From: Victivallaceae bacterium | GTDB lineage: Bacteria; Verrucomicrobiota; Lentisphaeria; Victivallales; Victivallaceae | DNA length: 54,154 bases | Direction of reading: 5' to 3' | NCBI GenBank assembly: GCA_045605205.1 | Contig: JAZUPO010000229.1 | Coordinates: 1 to 54,154, forward strand | Part shown: positions 43,109-51,914 of the stretch, one piece after another | Layout: every line of letters begins with the position of its first letter | Position numbering within the stretch: position 1 is the stretch's first letter | Program-made: the position numbers and the translations under genes | The notes under the pieces: model-generated | Told to the model about the DNA's origin: nothing | The model's input: the letters and a program-made list of their open reading frames with translations, nothing else | The model's database searches: none

Positions 43109-46100
43109 TTATCCGGCGATTGACGGATAGCGGTTGTAAACGTGCTCGTAGATCAGACCGGTGTACTGGTTGATGCTTTGATCATCGTAGCTTTGAGGCA
43201 GAGAAACGAACAACGAGTCGCGGATAAGATTACTGACGGCAGATCGAGTATCTTCTTTGTCCCGCCAATGGTCGAGTTCGGCTATTTTTTCTTTGACTTT
43301 GGCAAGAAGTTCAATGGAAATCTCTTTGATTTTTTTGATATCCTTGGCAGAAAGGGAGTCTTTGAAAAGCAAATCGTAGACAGAAAGCTCTTCATCGCTG
43401 GTAAAACCTTCACGGACATATCGGCGCTGCTCTGAATCAAGCTCACTGCTCAATTTCATCAAATCCATAAATGTTTTTTCTATCTTGGCTTTATCCTGTT
43501 CGCCGTTGTAGCTTTCAATGATTTCCTGATATTTTGTGTAGTAATCGATCCGTTTGGGATTGGTCGGCAGCATTGTAGAAAGCCGCTGTTCAATGAGTTC
43601 TTCGAGATCTTTCAGAAGCAGGAATTTCTTCCGTGTCTTCGCAAACTCTTTCTGCAGTAATTCAAAGTCTATCTGGCTGATATCGAAAGAACGGGGCGTA
43701 TTCCGGTCGGCAGATTCAGTGGAAACATATTCATTGACGATTCCGTGAATTTGAACCATCAGTTCCGTATTATCTGCATTTTTCCGCTTTTTCTGAAGTT
43801 CGTTAAAAATTCCATTGACAGCATCTTTTTCCTGACGCATGGAAGGAGTAATATCATTTCGGTCTAAATATTTCCACAGCCTGAAAAGTTCACTTGCCGA
43901 TGTTTGGAACTCTTTTTTGATCTCCAAAGTTTTGCATAATTCATTTGCCGCCTGCTGCAGCAAGGCGATACGTTCAAAACCGGAGGAAGCAATCAGGGCA
44001 TCCAGAGAAAAGTTGTTCTTCTGCAGGAATGTTTTGGTTGTACTTATGATTTCCTGAATTCTATGAATAAGCTCTTCTTTGTTCACCGTCGGATCAGTTC
44101 CATTGCCGTGGCCCTCTTGGGACGTATATGCAGCCAACGCTTCACGCAGAGCCTTGACAATACCGATGTAGTCAAGGATGAGCCCGTTTGTTTTCCCTTC
44201 TGCCACACGATTTGCCCGAGCGATAGTTTGCATAAGAGTGTGGGCTTTGAGAGGTTTATCCAGATAGAGGCATGAGAGAGATTTTACATCAAATCCGGTC
44301 AGCCACATAGCACAGACAAAGACCACGCGGAAAGGATTTTGGGAATCTTTGAATTCCTTATCCAGTTCCCGGGTTTCCATTTTCGTGCGGTGTGGACGGA
44401 TATCCAATCCCCAGGCGTCAAAAGTTTTGATTTCATTTTGTTCCTGACTGATGACAACAGCCATTTCGGTTTCTTTCATCCAGTTGAGCTTACGGGAAAG
44501 CTCTTGAGCTGTTTGCTGTGAAGTTTCTTTTTTGAGCTGCTGTTCAAGTTCAGAAATTTTAAGCTGCCAGTATTTTTGAACGAGATTATACATCCTGACA
44601 CAGGAAATTTTGTTCAAGCAGACATACATAGCCTTGCCGCAAGTCCACAAGTCAGAATAGTGTTCAACAAAATCCTGAGCCAGCGCCTCAAAGCGTGATT
44701 CAGCAGTCAGCAAATGGATTTCCTTTGCGAACTCCCGTTCCAGCTTTTCCTGCTGATTGGGATCTAGATCGGCGGCTTCAACAGCTTCGATAATGCGTTC
44801 AGTAATTTCGGGACTTGTGATATCCTTGAATTTCTGACCTCTGTTTTCGTAGTAAAGAGGAACGGTTGCGCCGTCATCAACAGCCCGTTTGAAGTCGTAG
44901 ATGGAAACGTAGCCGCCAAAGGTCCTTTCGGTAATGTTATCATTAGAAAGGAGAGGTGTCCCGGTAAATCCGATACGGGAGGCTGTGGGCAGTAAAGAAC
45001 ACATATTGTCGGCAAAGATACCATTTTGACTGCGGTGAGCCTCATCTGACATAATGATAATATCGTGATCAGGAATGATCGGAGTTGGATTCCCTTGATT
45101 GAATTTCTGAATCAGAGTAAAAATAAAGCTGGGATTGCCTTTAAGTTTGTTGATCAGGTCAGAGCCGCTGGAGGCAATAAAATGAGACCCCTTGACGGCT
45201 CCGAGAATACCGCAGTTTTCAAAGGTGTCGCTGATCTGTGAATTAAGCTCATCACGGTCAGTCAGAATAACAATGGTCGGAGAGCCTTCAAACTTGCGGC
45301 GGATCTTTTGAGCGAGAAAGAGCATGGAGTAACTCTTTCCGCTGCCTTGGGTATGCCAGAAAACGCCCAGTTTGCCCTCTTTGAGTTTTCTGTTTTTGTA
45401 GGCTTCGATGGCTTCATTGACACCGAGATACTGATGGTTGCGGGCAAGGATTTTGGCAGTACGACCGCCTGAATGATCGAAGAGGATAAAGTTTTCGAGC
45501 AGATCAATAAAGGTCTCTTTTTTGCAGATCCCCCGGAGCATGGTCTGCAATTCCACGCAGCCGGGATCCTGTTCTTTAAGACGTTTCCATTCGTGGAAGA
45601 ATTCGTATTTACTGCCGAGGGTTCCGACTTTTGCGTGATGTCCGTTACTCAGGATGAGAAACGCGTTGTAATAGAAGAGCTGCGGAATGGTCGCCAGATA
45701 GTCGGTATAATTGTTGGTATAGGCATCTTGCACATCCACATTAACGGCTTTGAATTCCATAAACAAAAGCGGGATACCGTTGACAAAGCCCACAATATCC
45801 GTCCGGCGGCGGTGGAGAGTACCTTGGATTTTAAGTTCTTTAATGGCGAGAAAATGGTTATTGAGTGGAGTCTGAAAATCAATGAGTTTGGCGGTGCGGG
45901 TGGAAAATTTGCCATTGGGAAGTTTGACGGAAACAGGGATGCCGTCACGGATGAGGAAATATTTTTCCTCATTGATCTGCATAAGGGAGGCAGAAGCAAG
46001 ATGAGTTTCGAGTTTCTTTTGGGCTTCATCGATCTGAGCCGGAGTAATCCAGGGATTGAACTCTTTGATTTTAAGACGGAAATATCGGGAAAGCAAGATT

Positions 46101-46246
46101 TCTCGATAACTTTTGCGTCCGAAAGTGCCATCGATACCAAGTTTTTCGGTGTTGTAGGCAAACTTGACCTCCCAACCCAACTCATTCTGGAGCAGATTTC
46201 CCGCACTTTCCTGCACCAGAATATTTTCAGAATACTCGTAACTCAT
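43109..46246 (-). CDS. hsdR: Type I restriction endonuclease subunit R
   Basis: A 1045-aa protein with an HsdR N-terminal nuclease region, SF2 helicase motifs (HTQGSGKS, MSDEAHRSQ, TGTPL, QTIARANR) and a DUF3387-like C-terminus. Confidence 0.95.
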   Translation of the reverse strand: MSYEYSENILVQESAGNLLQNELGWEVKFAYNTEKLGIDGTFGRKSYREILLSRYFRLKIKEFNPWITPAQIDEAQKKLETHLASASLMQINEEKYFLIRDGIPVSVKLPNGKFSTRTAKLIDFQTPLNNHFLAIKELKIQGTLHRRRTDIVGFVNGIPLLFMEFKAVNVDVQDAYTNNYTDYLATIPQLFYYNAFLILSNGHHAKVGTLGSKYEFFHEWKRLKEQDPGCVELQTMLRGICKKETFIDLLENFILFDHSGGRTAKILARNHQYLGVNEAIEAYKNRKLKEGKLGVFWHTQGSGKSYSMLFLAQKIRRKFEGSPTIVILTDRDELNSQISDTFENCGILGAVKGSHFIASSGSDLINKLKGNPSFIFTLIQKFNQGNPTPIIPDHDIIIMSDEAHRSQNGIFADNMCSLLPTASRIGFTGTPLLSNDNITERTFGGYVSIYDFKRAVDDGATVPLYYENRGQKFKDITSPEITERIIEAVEAADLDPNQQEKLEREFAKEIHLLTAESRFEALAQDFVEHYSDLWTCGKAMYVCLNKISCVRMYNLVQKYWQLKISELEQQLKKETSQQTAQELSRKLNWMKETEMAVVISQEQNEIKTFDAWGLDIRPHRTKMETRELDKEFKDSQNPFRVVFVCAMWLTGFDVKSLSCLYLDKPLKAHTLMQTIARANRVAEGKTNGLILDYIGIVKALREALAAYTSQEGHGNGTDPTVNKEELIHRIQEIISTTKTFLQKNNFSLDALIASSGFERIALLQQAANELCKTLEIKKEFQTSASELFRLWKYLDRNDITPSMRQEKDAVNGIFNELQKKRKNADNTELMVQIHGIVNEYVSTESADRNTPRSFDISQIDFELLQKEFAKTRKKFLLLKDLEELIEQRLSTMLPTNPKRIDYYTKYQEIIESYNGEQDKAKIEKTFMDLMKLSSELDSEQRRYVREGFTSDEELSVYDLLFKDSLSAKDIKKIKEISIELLAKVKEKIAELDHWRDKEDTRSAVSNLIRDSLFVSLPQSYDDQSINQYTGLIYEHVYNRYPSIAG
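46224..46246 (-). repeat. 23-nt direct repeat, copy A (functional hsdR 5' end, ATGAGTTACGAGTATTCTGAAAA)
   Basis: Identical at 22 of 23 positions to 47165-47187. Confidence 0.9.
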
Positions 46247-46264: not shown

Positions 46265-47152
46265 TCAAATCTCATCGGTATCGCTCTCATAATAGTAAGA
46301 GTAGTCGATGCCTTTCATAAACATTTCCCGGTCATTAATTTTATCGGTCAGAGCGACTTTCAGTAAAGTTTTCAAATCGGTACTGTTAATCACACTCTTC
46401 TGCATGGCTTCAAGATAAGCCTTTTTATTGACCAGACTCCAGTCAATACATTGTTTCAAAGAACGCTTGAGCATCAAGTCCAGCCAGATACGGGTGGAGC
46501 GTCCGTTACCTTCCATAAAGGGGTGAGCGACATTCATTTCCACATATTTGTTGATGATCTCTTCAAAAGAAGATTCCGGCATATTCTCGATATTGGGAAA
46601 AATCGTAGAAAAGTAAAGAGCATTGGCAAAGGTGAAACCGCCTTTACTGATATTTTTATCCCGGATTTGTCCGGCGAATTCATACAAGCCGCCGAAAAGA
46701 TAAGCGTGGATCTGCTGCAGACATTTTACCGTGCCGGGTTCCATAGAAGAGAGAAGACCGCTTTCAAAGAGAGCATAGGCTTTGGTACGGCTTTTGCCGT
46801 CGATGGTATCATCGCTGTAAGTGAACCATTTTATAAATTTAGCGGCATGACGGCTGGGGATATGCTCAATCAAAATGAGAATATCCTGTTGGGTAAGACA
46901 ATCAGTCAGATAGCGTTTCCCGTCAGAAGCAGTCATTTTCAGTTGACTACAATTTGTAGTCAACTCGGGGTTGGTCTTTTTCAGGCGTGATTTGAGAACG
47001 CTCCAATATTTCCGCGGATTAACGCTTTCGGTCAAAACGCCGACAATATCGGCAACCGAGAACAGCCATTGATTAGCTGAATCATCCCACGCTGCCCGAA
47101 CTTCCCGATCATTAAAAAAACGGATGGAAATTTTATTGCTCATCAATTTCAA
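46265..47152 (-). CDS. Bro-N-like DNA-binding domain fused to a Fic/DOC (Fido) domain
   Basis: The Fic motif is [12 protein letters not shown]. The N-terminal [31 protein letters not shown]...AAKFIKWF fits the Bro-N pattern. The start is TTG 47152 (TTGA overlap with the relic mini-ORF stop) or ATG 47143. Confidence 0.85.
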
Positions 47153-47164
47153 CCTTGTTTTAAT

Positions 47165-47187
47165 TTTTCAGAATACTCGTAAGTCAT
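47165..47187 (-). repeat. 23-nt direct repeat, copy B (relic hsdR 5' end, ATGACTTACGAGTATTCTGAAAA)
   Basis: Its ATG overlaps the stop of the unknown 243-aa gene (ATGA). It opens a 12-codon mini-[15 protein letters not shown], whose TGA overlaps the TTG start of the Fic gene. Confidence 0.9.
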
Positions 47188-47912
47188 AATTCATCATCCC
47201 GCAATTTGCAAATATTTTTTGTCATCATAATTTTACGCAACTTTGTTCCTAAATCAGTATATGCATAGTATGAATTGACTTTACGGGGTATGGGGATTTT
47301 TTTAGAAACCATACGCGTAGGTTCTGTTATGAAGCGATTTTTCGCTTGGTTATCCTCCGTAATTATACCAAGTCCCTCTAATCTCAACAATGGCTCAATT
47401 CCATCACTTCGCCCCTCGTATACTACAAATAAGTTTTCTGCATACATCAAATAAGTAATATCATCCGGAAGTAGTCTATCTATAATTTCTGCATATGTAG
47501 AGAACACCTGCCAATCAATATACTCAAACAAATATGCGAGGTATAATTTCGCTAACATTCTTGGTTTGTTGTAATCAAGATAGCGATCAATTAAAATCAT
47601 AATGTACTCAAGTTGTTGTTTTTGAAATTTTTCATTCTGTTGGAATTTCTCCGCATACAAGTTGCGATTATTTTCATCAAGAGAACATTTATTTAACTCA
47701 TCTAAAAAACATATTAATTTTTTTAAGTTGTGTCGCTCTTTAATGCTTTTTCCAATGCGATATATGGAAATCGCAGAAGATATAAACGGTATATCTTTTA
47801 AAATACCATCTTCAAGTAACGCATCAATTCCCAACTCCGCCGCATTAGATATGATACTTTCAAATTCTGGTGACAAACTGTCTTTTAATGACTTAGATAA
47901 ATCATTTGCCAT
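47184..47912 (-). CDS. Uncharacterised 242/243-aa protein embedded in the Type I R-M operon (no family recognised)
   Basis: The ORF starts at ATG 47912 (TGATG overlap with the hsdS stop, GGAGG 8-9 nt upstream) or at GTG 47915. GC is about 30%. It looks like a helical N-half plus a mixed C-half, with no TM helix and no catalytic motif recognised. Confidence 0.75.
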   Translation of the reverse strand: MANDLSKSLKDSLSPEFESIISNAAELGIDALLEDGILKDIPFISSAISIYRIGKSIKERHNLKKLICFLDELNKCSLDENNRNLYAEKFQQNEKFQKQQLEYIMILIDRYLDYNKPRMLAKLYLAYLFEYIDWQVFSTYAEIIDRLLPDDITYLMYAENLFVVYEGRSDGIEPLLRLEGLGIITEDNQAKNRFITEPTRMVSKKIPIPRKVNSYYAYTDLGTKLRKIMMTKNICKLRDDEL

Positions 47913-49114
47913 CACTTCACCTCCAATTCGCCGGTCATCAGCTTGGGCAATAAATTATCACGAGCCTCTTGTGTTGCATTGATACATTGTTGGGAATCAT
48001 ATATTTTTTTGAAAATGGGAGCTGTCAATTTTGAAAATGCAGATATTAAATCTGTATCTGGTAAAATAAACGGCATAGCTTTTATGATAGATGAGTTTAC
48101 TGCTTTTGAAATTGATGATGTATTACCCAATGTGTCGTACTCAAAGTTTTTAAGATATAAATATGTGTATTCCCGCATCCACTCTTCATCAATGTAAAAA
48201 TGGGCGATGGCTTCGTTTGTACAACACGGAGTTGTTGCTATAGAAACTCGTCCGAGAGTTAATTTAAAACTCAACAAAATAGTCCCGACAGGTACTTTTT
48301 TTACATTGTATTTATTTATTGAATCTGCAGTCAGACCTTCAGTAGTGAAAAAAACATAAGCGCCACTATTGCCCATATCAGAAATGGATACCCATGGGAT
48401 ACCATTATTACCATCCGTGAAACATTGGCTTTCTGAACGAGGAGGTGTTTTGCCAATGGTAATATTGAAAAAATCTATTGCTTTCCCTGTTCGCCATCCA
48501 TCGGGGATGCCGTTGACGATGGGGGTGGTTTCGTGGCCGGGGAAGCGGAGGTCGATGAACCATTCTTTATAGAGCCGCTGGGCGGCTTCTTCCAGAAGCT
48601 TGATCTGTTTCCGGTTGTTTTCAATCAAATCATCATACGCCGAAAGCATATCTGCGATTTTTTGCTGAACCTCAAGCGGCGGAAGATTGTCTACATTCAT
48701 TTCACGAATTGTCGGAAGGTTTACATGAGCCACTGTTGCTCCATTGGCGGTACCAAGCAATTTGTATTGCTGCTCCGAAGCAAGCAGATAGTAAACCAAG
48801 TAGTCCGGACAAACTTTTTCCGGATTAGGGCGAATCAAAACAGTTCTTTGCCCTAAACACATTTTTTCATTGTTTTTTATAATTGCAGCATTTCCAGCAG
48901 GTGCTTCCCGAGCAAAAATTATATCATCATTTTGCGGGATAGCTCGCGCACATCGGGCTTGATACACCTTTTCAGAAACTCGATGTACCCCTTCCAAGTT
49001 AAAACGCCCCAAGCCAATATTGGGGGTTCTGATGAGTGGAATTCCGCTTCCCTCATCCGGAGCCGTTGAGTGGGGGCAGTCAACAATAAAATGACAAATA
49101 TCTTGTAATTTCAT
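47912..49114 (-). CDS. hsdS: Type I restriction-modification specificity subunit S
   Basis: It has two target-recognition domains separated by the conserved helix LPPLEVQQKIADMLSAYDDLIENNRKQIKLLEEAAQRLYKEWF. The C-terminal conserved helix is ...QEARDNLLPKLMTGELEV. Confidence 0.92.
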   Translation of the reverse strand: MKLQDICHFIVDCPHSTAPDEGSGIPLIRTPNIGLGRFNLEGVHRVSEKVYQARCARAIPQNDDIIFAREAPAGNAAIIKNNEKMCLGQRTVLIRPNPEKVCPDYLVYYLLASEQQYKLLGTANGATVAHVNLPTIREMNVDNLPPLEVQQKIADMLSAYDDLIENNRKQIKLLEEAAQRLYKEWFIDLRFPGHETTPIVNGIPDGWRTGKAIDFFNITIGKTPPRSESQCFTDGNNGIPWVSISDMGNSGAYVFFTTEGLTADSINKYNVKKVPVGTILLSFKLTLGRVSIATTPCCTNEAIAHFYIDEEWMREYTYLYLKNFEYDTLGNTSSISKAVNSSIIKAMPFILPDTDLISAFSKLTAPIFKKIYDSQQCINATQEARDNLLPKLMTGELEVK

Positions 49115-49181: not shown

Positions 49182-49850
49182 TCATTGTTTCCCGCCTTTC
49201 AGCAGATTTGCCGCTTCTTCGATTTTTTTAAGCAATGATTCATTGCCGTATTGAGAAACTTCCCGGTAGATTTCCCGGAGGAGTGATAAGACCTTTTCCT
49301 GTTTTGCATTACGGCTGCCTACTCTTGCATTATACATTCTTTCCCGCAAGCCGCCTTTTTCAGCGAAACTCTCTGCTAATGATTTCAGTTGCCGGTCAAG
49401 CAGATAATTGGTCTGGTGGATCAGCGAAATCATCGTGTTGCAGAAAAGCTCGGCATTGTCGGGGGCTAAATAGGTCTTATAAGTCTCATAGGACTTATTT
49501 TTTTGTTTTGCCAACTCTCTGATTTGCACGATCCGCTGATCGTTTTTATCCCACAAAGGCAACCTGTGTACTCGCAAATGATCCCGGTAATCTTCCAGCA
49601 ATTCCTCAAGACTCGCCCGGGCAACACCGATCAGTTTGATTTCGGTTTCACAACTGATCCCGGAGGCGGAACAACCTTCAATAATATTCTGTTTGCCGCT
49701 TCGTGCCGCCTGTATCATCTGATCAATAGTCCGATCACCTTTTTGCAAGTACCACTGACAAAAATTATTGGTGGCATCAAATATAACCACACTGTTCTGA
49801 TAAGACTCCAGTTCCTGATAATTGCCGTGGCTCTGGATAATTTCATTCAT
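49182..49850 (-). CDS. Four-helix-bundle protein (23S rRNA intervening-sequence-protein family) with C-terminal suffix domain
   Basis: A 222-aa protein. The pattern Y....V.IFD.T..F........RT.DQM.QAARSGKQNI.EG and its location between hsdM and hsdS fit the TIGR02436-type family (from memory). It overlaps hsdM by ATGA. Confidence 0.6.
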   Translation of the reverse strand: MNEIIQSHGNYQELESYQNSVVIFDATNNFCQWYLQKGDRTIDQMIQAARSGKQNIIEGCSASGISCETEIKLIGVARASLEELLEDYRDHLRVHRLPLWDKNDQRIVQIRELAKQKNKSYETYKTYLAPDNAELFCNTMISLIHQTNYLLDRQLKSLAESFAEKGGLRERMYNARVGSRNAKQEKVLSLLREIYREVSQYGNESLLKKIEEAANLLKGGKQ

Positions 49851-51850
49851 ATCCCCAGCTCCTTGAAGTTGGCAGAGATTTGCGCCATCAGCTCATTGGA
49901 TTGCTGTTGCAAGGTCAGCAGTTCAGCGTGGATTTCGTGCATTCTTTCGGAGAAATCCACTCCGTCATCTTTCGCTTCGGCAACTCCGACGTATGCTCCC
50001 GGAGTCAGGGACCAGTTTTTTCCTTCAACTTCGGTGCTATCCGCAATTTTACACAAACCGGGAATATCGGCATACTTGCCTTCAGTACCAAATTTGCCGG
50101 TCAGCCAGTTGGCCTCCTGCAAAATGGTGATATAGGCATTAATAAATTCTGCAGCCGCTTCGCCTCTTTGTTCCAAAGCCTTATTGAAAGCATTCAGGCG
50201 GTTGAAACCTGCATCTTTCAGTTTGTCTTTCTGTGTCGCCGGGTTGTTGGCATAGTTTGCCAACAACCCCGCAGTACACTTTTTGTGAATTTCAGCAGCT
50301 GTTTTCAATGCTTCCATTAAGGCTTCAGACTTTACCAATGTTTCCGGTGTCATCGCCAGCAGATCTTTACAGAGATGATCGATTGCACAGTCAAAGTGTC
50401 CGATACGGTCAGCATCCAACAGCTGCCGATATTCTTTGACGGCTTCTTTTATTTCTTTGGCTCCATCGTGGAACGTTTTCAGATATTCAGAGATCAGATT
50501 CTGATATTTTTCCATTTCTCCACGGTACAGCCAGACAATGGCATTTAGATTTTTCAACTGCCATTCGCTCCATTCATTGAGGGTACGGTCAACTTCGGTG
50601 TAATAGCTCCGGGCATCAATGAAAAGAATTTTTTCTTGCAGAGCTTCTGCTTTCCCTTTGTCAAAGAACCACAGCGAACAGGGGAGACTTTTGGTATAAA
50701 AGAAGTTGTTGCCCACGCTGATCATCACATCAATATGTCCGGTCTTAACCAGCTGTTCTCGAATATCTTTATCTTTGCCTTGACTGTCCGTGGCACTTGA
50801 AGCCATAACAAATCCGGCTCGGCCAACCTCATTCAAATAGGCGTAGAAATAAGAGATCCACAAGTAATTGCCATTGCCCACCTCTTTTGCTTTATTTACA
50901 CCGGGCATTCCAAAAGGCAGCCGCCCGGCAGCTTCGGCTGATTCCGCTTTGACCTTATCCACATTGAAAGGCGGGTTGGCCATCACATAGTTACATTCGC
51001 CGACCAGATTGTGTGCATCGTGATAAAAGGTATTGGCTCCGTCTCCGGAAAGGATTTTTCCGTTCAACCCGTGAACTGCCATATTCATCAGGCACAGCTG
51101 GGCATTGTATTCCACCTTTTCCTGACCGTAAAAGGTCATAGTGTTGTTGGCGACCATACCGGAGTGATTGACAAAATCTCCCGTTTGCACAAACATTCCA
51201 CCCGATCCGCAGGCAGGATCAAGCAGAATGCCGGATTTGGGTTCCAGCACATTCACGATCATTTTAACCAGTGACTTGGGCGTAAAAAACACGCCGTCAT
51301 CAGACGCGATGTTCTTGGCAAACTTATTGAGAAAATATTCATAGATCCGGCCGAAGACATCTCCGCCGATCTCATCAAGAAGATTGTTGTTGAAAATCCG
51401 CAGCAGTTCCGCAAGCAGAGCATCTGAAAACATCGTGTACTCTTTGGGCAAAACACCTTGAAGCTGTTCACTCTGCTGTTCGATCAGCTCCATGGCATTA
51501 TTGACCGCCTCACCAAGACTGTTAATAGGCAGTCCATCCTGATTGATCAGCCCGGCCTCAGCGATATTCTCTGGCAGATTCACCAGATAGGGGTATTGGG
51601 CTTCTTCCGACAGAAACAATGCGCTCTTTTCTTTGAAATCACTAGCCTCCACAGGCAATACTCTGCCATTGCGAACAGGACGATGAGCAAGAATTTCTCT
51701 TTCAACCAGTTTGAAACGGCTGTAGGCGTAGCGCAAAAAGAGCAAGCCCAGAACAGGCATACAGTACTGGTTGGAGGTAAGTTTCGATTCTGCCCGGAGC
51801 AAATCTGCGGATTCCCAGAGGTCACTCTCAAGTTTTCGGATATTGATCAT
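49847..51850 (-). CDS. hsdM: Type I restriction-modification DNA methyltransferase subunit M (long form)
   Basis: The HsdM_N helix bundle (LWESADLLRA...VLGLLFLRY), the SAM motif LDPACGSGGM, the catalytic NPPF (VMANPPFN) and the C-terminal KNWSLTPGAYVG are present. Confidence 0.95.
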   Translation of the reverse strand: MINIRKLESDLWESADLLRAESKLTSNQYCMPVLGLLFLRYAYSRFKLVEREILAHRPVRNGRVLPVEASDFKEKSALFLSEEAQYPYLVNLPENIAEAGLINQDGLPINSLGEAVNNAMELIEQQSEQLQGVLPKEYTMFSDALLAELLRIFNNNLLDEIGGDVFGRIYEYFLNKFAKNIASDDGVFFTPKSLVKMIVNVLEPKSGILLDPACGSGGMFVQTGDFVNHSGMVANNTMTFYGQEKVEYNAQLCLMNMAVHGLNGKILSGDGANTFYHDAHNLVGECNYVMANPPFNVDKVKAESAEAAGRLPFGMPGVNKAKEVGNGNYLWISYFYAYLNEVGRAGFVMASSATDSQGKDKDIREQLVKTGHIDVMISVGNNFFYTKSLPCSLWFFDKGKAEALQEKILFIDARSYYTEVDRTLNEWSEWQLKNLNAIVWLYRGEMEKYQNLISEYLKTFHDGAKEIKEAVKEYRQLLDADRIGHFDCAIDHLCKDLLAMTPETLVKSEALMEALKTAAEIHKKCTAGLLANYANNPATQKDKLKDAGFNRLNAFNKALEQRGEAAAEFINAYITILQEANWLTGKFGTEGKYADIPGLCKIADSTEVEGKNWSLTPGAYVGVAEAKDDGVDFSERMHEIHAELLTLQQQSNELMAQISANFKELGI

Positions 51851-51886: not shown

Positions 51887-51914
51887 AATATAGCATTTAT
51901 TTCTCTTATTTCAA
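51887..51914 (-). promoter_or_regulatory. Putative promoter of the Type I R-M operon (TTGAAA-16-TGcTATATT)
   Basis: Minus-strand hexamers with an extended -10, about 37 nt upstream of the hsdM ATG. Confidence 0.45.

Follow-up and report, generated by a model that had tools for sequence, protein, structure and literature searches.

A gene between hsdS and hsdR as candidate defense cargo: a large unnamed family with a conserved helical module and a hypervariable basic module

The DNA analyzed here, referred to as the window, comprises positions 1 to 54,154 of contig JAZUPO010000229.1 from a Victivallaceae bacterium. At 43.1-51.9 kb it carries a Type I restriction-modification (R-M) operon, a single co-directional string of minus-strand genes in the order hsdM, a four-helix-bundle protein gene, hsdS, ORF243, a Bro-N/Fic gene, and hsdR. 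ORF243, the open reading frame (ORF) considered here (47184..47912), encodes 242 amino acids (aa) from the ATG at 47912..47910, or 243 aa from a GTG at 47915. It is a real, widely conserved gene, which we read, with somewhat better than even confidence, as an autonomous, horizontally exchanged defense-island cargo gene of a large unnamed family, captured in the hsdS-hsdR slot; the best reading is that it is not an obligate R-M partner. On one side it adjoins hsdS (47912..49114; 400 aa), which encodes two Methylase_S target-recognition domains (TRDs), and on the other the Bro-N/Fic gene (46265..47143), which encodes an NmFic-type adenylyltransferase, corresponds to the PADLOC candidate PDC-S04, and is inserted between ORF243 and hsdR (43109..46246; 1045 aa, intact, with HSDR_N, SWI2_SNF2/ResIII, and T1R_D3-like domains).

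At the start junction (minus strand, GAATTGGAGGTGAAGTGATGGCA, also given as GGAGGTGAAGTGATGG), the hsdS stop codon TGA (47914..47912) and the ORF243 ATG have base 47912 in common (TGATG), and a Shine-Dalgarno motif GGAGG (47924..47920), read from the sequence within the last hsdS codons, ends 7 nt ahead of that ATG; both features had been pointed out in a preliminary description of this DNA. The promoter scan found no promoter-like site directly before ORF243, a result that fits a gene expressed as part of the operon. The best match in the scan, a sigma-70-like site on the minus strand at 51887..51914 (10/12 with TG, a consensus match only), lies just upstream of hsdM and is a likely candidate for the operon promoter. 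The best explanation is that ORF243 would be expressed from the operon via translational coupling to hsdS, a view we hold as part of the overall reading, at a level a little above even.

At the stop junction (minus strand, GAATTATGACTTACGAGTATTCTGAAAAA, also given as TTATGACTTACGAGTATTCTGAAAAA), the TGA of ORF243 (47186..47184) overlaps an ATG (47187..47185) to form ATGA. That ATG opens the frame of an hsdR 5'-end relic (47165..47187, minus strand, ATGACTTACGAGTATTCTGAAAA; the frame extends to 47149), which is identical in 22 of 23 nt (ATGAGTTACGAGTATTCTGAAAA) to the true hsdR start (46246..) located 0.94 kb downstream. In locus L002, from a Clostridiales metagenome-assembled genome (MAG), the stop of the homolog and the ATG of a full-length, intact hsdR likewise overlap as ATGA, so that the relic reading is backed by comparison and goes beyond resemblance (L-numbers denote the loci examined and P-numbers the family proteins). 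In the simplest loci (L009, L015, L027, L028, L032, and L054), the homolog ends 17-37 nt before hsdR. In L020-L022, it is followed by a 64-codon (192 nt) hsdR relic, an AAA_15-Fic gene, and then an intact hsdR, and in L035, by a 24-codon (72 nt) relic, so that hsdR relics of 23, 72, and 192 nt trail the family gene in independent loci. Taken together, L002, the simple loci, and the relics provide comparative support for the ancestral order hsdS-X-hsdR. ORF243 is thus coupled to hsdS now and was formerly coupled to hsdR, as the preliminary description had proposed. Its view that hsdR is only ancestral at this locus has to be amended: the intact gene sits 0.9 kb downstream, behind the inserted Bro-N/Fic gene.

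Judging by these duplications, later cassettes appear to have joined by recombination at the 5' end of hsdR, each leaving a duplicate of a different length. The Bro-N/Fic cassette lies between directly repeated 23-nt copies of the hsdR 5' end (47165..47187 and 46224..46246), and the longer relics in other loci (24 and 64 codons) stand ahead of other inserted cassettes. The first hsdR codons seem to act as a recombination site where the slot gains cargo, in which case the relic 5' ends record how the hsdS-hsdR slot gathers it.

A single-sequence search with ORF243 returned 290 homologs, unnamed and almost all of about 231 aa, and a profile search of 1.84 billion representatives returned 3190 representative clusters at E<=1e-3 (2040 at E<=1e-10), with a range from Clostridia to Enterobacteria. 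This conservation rules out a spurious ORF or an antisense gene. The proteobacterial branch (Klebsiella, Serratia, Aeromonas, Dickeya, Pseudomonas, and Cronobacter), all members of which are called "hypothetical protein," shows homology along almost its entire length (hhalign probability 99.8%, E=8e-30). One member, P0194 (594 aa), has the full family domain fused to TPR repeats and a class I S-adenosylmethionine (SAM)-dependent methyltransferase domain. Searches with ORF243 gave no family match in Pfam, NCBIfam, PADLOC, PHROGs, or PDB sequences, in agreement with the earlier failure to recognize a family; against PADLOC v2.0.0 (5027 models, including PDC and HEC), 0 families were found at E<=1, and the Pfam scan gave no Methylase_S, N6_Mtase, or HSDR_N match that would relate the protein to HsdS, HsdM, or HsdR. 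The sole Pfam line, DUF7732 (E=0.019; 15.6 bits versus a cut-off of 27), is noise, with 2 of 133 members matching. Residues 249-331 of the uncharacterized 398-aa protein PDB 4w9r_A match positions 16-96 of the family profile (E=0.0033), a match that falls on the most conserved N-terminal stretch of the family (ExxxD...KDIP...). It was deemed uninformative because neither the proteobacterial profile nor Foldseek recovers it.

The relation of ORF243 to its operon was examined in related hsd operons chosen via HsdR alone (70-83% identical to the window HsdR). Five distinct operons were read: L084/85, L086, L087/88, and L089/90, with L084 and L085 counted apart as their cargo differs. None of the five carries a family member detectable with a hidden Markov model (HMM) that recovers distant positives at E=1e-30, and the slot is filled by other genes, very often a Fic-domain gene right before hsdR. 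ORF243 is therefore optional, exchangeable cargo, and a core accessory subunit of this hsd lineage is ruled out. The hsdS-hsdR slot is a hotspot whose content differs among related operons; the same site, occupied by DarTG2 in another system, has been noted as a likely recombination hotspot (PMC12255303). A Fic-domain gene is found directly upstream of hsdR in most operons of the lineage, with or without ORF243 (the window, L001, L020, and L084-L087), in the form of Bro-N/Fic (PDC-S04, NmFic-like), AAA_15-Fic, AAA_13 plus Fic, or a short Fic. Fic may accompany this HsdR more consistently than ORF243 does. An unannotated gene of about 265 aa also recurs as cargo, before hsdS in L001 (7994-8785) and after hsdS in L003 (2571-3374); the L001 copy has no Pfam or PADLOC match.

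The G+C content of ORF243 is 32.6% (30% at third codon positions), compared with 41.3% for hsdS, 42.9% for Bro-N/Fic, 44.6% for hsdR, 46.8% for hsdM, and 47.1% for the whole window. The foreign composition noted previously is thus upheld, with flanks at 41-47% and not the 47-55% then given. A low-G+C tract (34%) also spans the 3' half of hsdS (about 47800-48400). When the window is compared with locus L001, from a Lentisphaerae MAG, the DNA is 91-100% identical over a stretch that takes in the final 60 nt of hsdS, ORF243, and the Fic gene, as against 62-85% in hsdR and about 80% in hsdM. The two HsdS proteins (47912-49114 in the window and 8778-10001 in L001) share just 32% identity, even though the adjoining cassette is about 96% identical in DNA. 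This contrast between block and backbone, the divergence of HsdS, and the low G+C content indicate that the cassette block was exchanged independently of the hsd backbone: ORF243 and Fic moved together, and the block they form is much more highly conserved than the hsd genes. The most likely origin of the cassette is low-G+C Firmicutes, where the family is commonest, and shuffling appears to affect target-recognition domains and cargo jointly.

A neighborhood census of relatives was based on loci found via peptide patterns from close relatives, with some redundant contigs included; it leans to closer relatives, as wide alignments offered no conserved peptide stretch. At >=36% identity to ORF243, 23 loci are hsd-embedded, 12 are not embedded (with >=2.5 kb on both sides), and 14 lie on contigs that are too short, which places 23 of 35 classifiable loci in the hsdS-hsdR slot, an approximate fraction. 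At <36% identity, the respective numbers are 2, 11, and 7. Among 15 loci from GTDB genomes, 10 immediately precede an hsdR that belongs to the same lineage (60-80% identical), and in 8 of these 10 hsdS is also present upstream; all 10 come from Clostridia MAGs, except for L001, whose protein is 97% identical to ORF243. The relatives are strongly tied to hsd operons and also to other defense systems. In L024 (1483-2187), P0264, 25% identical by tblastn, is encoded between BrxC and PglX of a BREX system, with a 14-nt overlap with the PglX start. In L012, the family gene has a 4-nt overlap with the gene for an MmeI-type Type IIG enzyme, and another MmeI-type enzyme is encoded nearby in L056. Other neighbors include GmrSD/HEC-06 (L055), Kiwa KwaA/KwaB (L031), and a HEC-01A ATPase on an integrase-bearing element (L044), to which the element in L041, also with HicAB-like genes, is related, as well as the PADLOC candidates PDC-S56 (L006 and L007), PDC-M49A (L013), PDC-S45 (L052), PDC-S20, and PDC-S31. 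PDC-S56 (about 640 aa; L006 7987-9942 and L007 11076-12983) adjoins the family gene twice, once hsd-embedded and once not, with the order reversed, and the two may form a two-gene association.

Solo copies are found on Klebsiella, Citrobacter, and Enterobacter plasmids (roughly 105-120 kb), on Empedobacter tet(X3) plasmids and an Anabaena plasmid, and in variable chromosomal regions of Serratia and Aeromonas. On a 112-kb Klebsiella plasmid with phage-type replication genes (L018), the family gene lies beside an FRG/PDC-S15 gene, and on the Empedobacter plasmid pSE1-3-9kb (L019, 2061-2765) and related small plasmids, it is directly downstream of tet(X3). The family gene thus resides on clinically tracked replicons (the Empedobacter tet(X3) plasmids and the Klebsiella plasmids of about 110 kb). 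Family members are also found on integrative elements and beside IS21 elements.

These settings bear on the possibility that the protein is an R-M-linked guard similar to PrrC or Ronin, held inactive by, or monitoring, methyltransferase/TRD-based enzymes (HsdMS, PglX, and MmeI-type enzymes) until those enzymes are disabled by an anti-restriction protein of a phage (a DNA mimic, for example), upon which it would be released or activated and would abort the infection. Such a role would agree with the translational coupling on both sides in the hsd operon, with the embedding of about two thirds of the closer relatives, and with the tight linkage to PglX/BrxC and the MmeI-type enzyme; Ocr is known to target Type I R-M as well as BREX (PMC7261183), and PrrC and RonA of Ronin (bioRxiv 10.1101/2023.04.06.535777) are precedents. 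However, many solo relatives (in Serratia, Aeromonas, the Klebsiella phage-plasmids, and the small Empedobacter plasmids) have no R-M gene within 7 kb, others adjoin systems that lack a methyltransferase (GmrSD, Kiwa, and HEC-01), and the related hsd operons described above manage without the family gene. Furthermore, the embedding pattern is unspecific, since Type I R-M and BREX usually host embedded genes of every kind (bioRxiv 10.1101/2024.01.29.577857). We therefore regard a guard function as unlikely, although it is the leading alternative. The earlier proposal of an undescribed defense component holds insofar as the family is new and defense-associated; its second part, that the protein senses or backs up the R-M complex, is not supported, given the BREX, GmrSD, Kiwa, and solo settings and the 0/5 HsdR-selected operons. 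ORF243 behaves as exchangeable cargo and not as a dedicated HsdMSR partner.

An AlphaFold (AF2) model of ORF243 built from 133 sequences has a predicted local distance difference test (pLDDT) score of 84.7 and a predicted template modeling (pTM) score of 0.84 (a first model, from 31 sequences, had a pLDDT of 68) and consists of nine helices up to residue about 157, followed by a small alpha/beta unit. Foldseek found no PDB match below E=0.1 with either model (best E=1.4 with the better one), so this comparison, suggested in the preliminary description, leaves the protein with no PDB neighbor. Conservation peaks at residues 21-70 and 101-150 (E26, D30, P42, K65, F69, L120, and D151) and resumes at R177-L178-x3-G182 and T219/G222, whereas residues about 153-176 and 186-216 are poorly conserved, with insertions and deletions. 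Pairs of members that are 80-90% identical over residues 1-150 have a median identity of 43% over 153-216, with 17% of such pairs below 30%, and even pairs more than 90% identical in the N-module have a median of only 49% there. So steep a contrast goes far beyond ordinary decay and bears the mark of a specificity module shaped by swapping or diversifying selection. ORF243 is thus a two-module protein, with a conserved acidic helical N-module (1-150; isoelectric point [pI] 4.9) and a basic alpha/beta C-module (pI 9.1) that is hypervariable at about 153-216. Sequence inspection and the model revealed no P-loop and no HEPN Rx4-6H motif, nor a PD-(D/E)xK motif in compatible secondary structure; the string RIGKS lacks the upstream G/A of a Walker A motif, is unconserved in the family, and falls in a predicted helix. 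There is no transmembrane (TM) segment in ORF243 (maximum Kyte-Doolittle 19-residue window, 1.04), which also agrees with the preliminary description. A separate subfamily (P0203, L057-L072), found outside R-M operons, is extended at the N terminus by about 70 residues that include two predicted TM helices.

The basic C-module could bind acidic DNA mimics, a point in favor of the guard idea. A quite unlikely, more speculative version of that idea is that the family represents a new non-enzymatic guard of Type I, BREX, and MmeI-type systems, in which the basic, hypervariable, winged-helix-like module would bait DNA-mimic or other anti-restriction proteins of phages and the conserved helical module, whose fold has no solved relative, would trigger abortive infection. 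On this view, the variants anchored in the membrane would indicate where the protein acts.

The order of helices and strands in the C-module and its motif RLxxLG[LI]...Y.[YL]T..G..L are compatible with winged-helix domains, and Foldseek searches with the first model gave weak matches to PadR, ArsR/SqrR, MarR, and TubR (E>=1.6), which were gone with the better model; the possible winged-helix identity of this module is a lead and not a finding. It raises the question of whether the protein might be a DNA-binding regulator that tunes neighboring defense genes (hsdR dosage or restriction alleviation) and does not itself act on the invader. The basic charge of the module and the position of the family gene directly upstream of hsdR in most loci would suit such a role, and there is a precedent in RptR, a small regulator from a Type I R-M island (PMC12255303). 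Against it stand the weakness and loss of all of the Foldseek matches and the position of ORF243 in mid-operon, known regulators of defense operons being first in the operon or divergent. In addition, a hypervariable DNA-reading surface is ill-suited to conserved hsd promoters, solo copies have no obvious target gene, and the 150-residue conserved N-module would be left unexplained. We give a regulatory role only a slim chance.

The viral side of the sequence space is almost empty of the family. No match was found by tblastn in 50,697 phage records, and the single IMG/VR match lies on an integrase-bearing integrative element. The one structural relative in BFVD, an unnamed 221-aa protein (E=1e-6; TM-score, 0.62/0.67), comes from an uncultured virus. 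This distribution bears on a further alternative, namely, that the gene serves mobile DNA (through anti-defense, exclusion of competing elements, or addiction) or is a passenger of no benefit gathered by frequent recombination in the slot. The presence of the family on plasmids, phage-plasmids, and integrative elements and beside IS21, its foreign G+C content, its cassette-like movement, and the viral structural relative would all fit that picture. However, the family is essentially absent from phages, it would be self-defeating for a host restriction operon to have an anti-restriction gene wired into it, and full-length conservation across phyla together with intact frames argues for selection. 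A non-defense role thus appears improbable.

A gene nested in Type I R-M, BREX, or a related system often turns out to be a defense in its own right (bioRxiv 10.1101/2024.01.29.577857; TgvAB, PMC11411939; DarTG2, which lies between hsdS and hsdR, PMC12255303). The PADLOC PDCs were collected through guilt-by-embedding in Type I R-M, BREX, and DISARM by Payne et al. in 2024 (bioRxiv 10.1101/2024.01.29.577857). ORF243 falls into the same operational class, as it is co-directional, nested in a Type I R-M operon, and free of mobility or housekeeping annotation, which is how those authors define an embedded candidate. As with the PDCs, its homologs also occur non-embedded, and its own slot neighbors are PDCs (PDC-S04 in the window; S20, S31, and S56 elsewhere). 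However, it matches no PADLOC 2.0 model and is missing from the list of 145 candidates; the likely reason is that the family is known mostly from uncultured Clostridia and metagenomes.

Among characterized systems, Abi-alpha (EF2833 of Enterococcus faecalis prophage 6; PF14337, Abi_alpha/DUF4393), for which the abortive-infection phenotype is premature lysis of infected cells (assay described in PMC6356687), is likewise a widespread single protein of about 230-270 aa with no recognizable enzymatic domain, carried on mobile DNA, and DUF4393 genes are targets of programmed sequence variation (PMC9881135), a parallel to the hypervariable C-module. Abi-alpha, however, is mostly prophage-borne, whereas the ORF243 family is nearly absent from phages. 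PF14337 does not match ORF243 at E<=0.1, there are no PHROG matches annotated as Abi-alpha, and the weak PF14337 matches of 1 of 40 and 2 of 133 members (best E=0.0028) are equal in number to those of several clearly unrelated families, leaving the link unproven. The phiNM1 gene between excisionase and repressor (L077:1402-2334; 10.1101/2025.10.23.684294) was unconfirmed as Abi_alpha (no Pfam match at E<=0.01) and did not align to the family. PrrC of the EcoprrI locus is embedded in a Type I R-M operon beside hsdR and co-transcribed with hsd, a location comparable to that of ORF243 between hsdS and hsdR. However, PrrC combines an ABC-ATPase with a C-terminal tRNA nuclease, whereas ORF243 has no AAA/ABC Pfam match or Walker A motif; Payne et al. 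(bioRxiv 10.1101/2024.01.29.577857) describe PrrC as embedded almost exclusively in hsd operons, whereas the ORF243 family is often found outside hsd operons. Ronin (RonA plus an HsdMS decoy; bioRxiv 10.1101/2023.04.06.535777) also has a small non-enzymatic gene tied to hsdM/hsdS and is a conceptual precedent for an R-M-linked abortive effector, but RonA is a 61-aa transmembrane peptide that is always linked to hsdMS, at loci usually devoid of hsdR, in contrast to the soluble, two-module, 242-aa ORF243 with its complete hsdMSR operon and many unlinked relatives. Apart from the location that it shares with PrrC, ORF243 therefore shows none of the hallmarks of PrrC, RonA, or Abi-alpha that were open to checking. 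The family is new, being absent from every library searched, but it is of an already known kind, a gene embedded in a defense operon.

As autonomous defense cargo, ORF243 would on its own provide protection from phages or other incoming DNA. Its C-module (about 153-230), which is hypervariable, basic, and winged-helix-like, would recognize a ligand specific to the invader (nucleic acid or a phage protein), and the conserved acidic helical N-module (1-150) would transmit or execute the response, probably without catalysis, through oligomerization, sequestration, or membrane action, like single-gene abortive-infection proteins. The site beside HsdR would provide co-expression and co-transfer with restriction, resulting in layered defense and not in physical dependence. 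Several points weigh against this picture. The tie to defense genes is correlative, and regulators and anti-defense genes have similar neighborhoods; the close wiring to hsdS/hsdR, MmeI, and BrxC/PglX could likewise reflect a functional tie to restriction systems built on methyltransferases. The loci were pattern-found and include redundant contigs, which makes the embedded fraction approximate, and the winged-helix assignment of the C-module depends on topology, a sequence motif, and Foldseek matches with E>=1.6. ORF243 offers no hint, in the form of a catalytic motif, a toxin domain, or a TM segment, of how it would stop a phage, and for all family members defense function and mechanism are inferred.

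Most genes nested in restriction and BREX operons are unexplained, and those tested have repeatedly proved to be new immune systems. ORF243, one of many such genes, is a good and experimentally tractable candidate for a new defense gene, given a large, cross-phylum family in no annotation library searched, a confidently predicted fold with no solved relative, and a design that joins a conserved scaffold to a hypervariable module. If it protects against phages, it would represent a new type of non-enzymatic effector or sensor and would give a name to thousands of "hypothetical proteins," including those on Klebsiella phage-plasmids and tet(X3) plasmids.

The upstream part of the operon holds a second embedded gene. 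The first gene, hsdM (49847..51850, minus strand), encodes a 667-aa protein with HsdM_N and N6_Mtase domains. Between it and hsdS lies the gene for the four-helix-bundle protein (49182..49850, minus strand; 222 aa), which is 23S rRNA IVP-like with a TIGR04258 suffix domain, overlaps hsdM by 4 nt, and encodes a product with 87% identity to its L001 counterpart.

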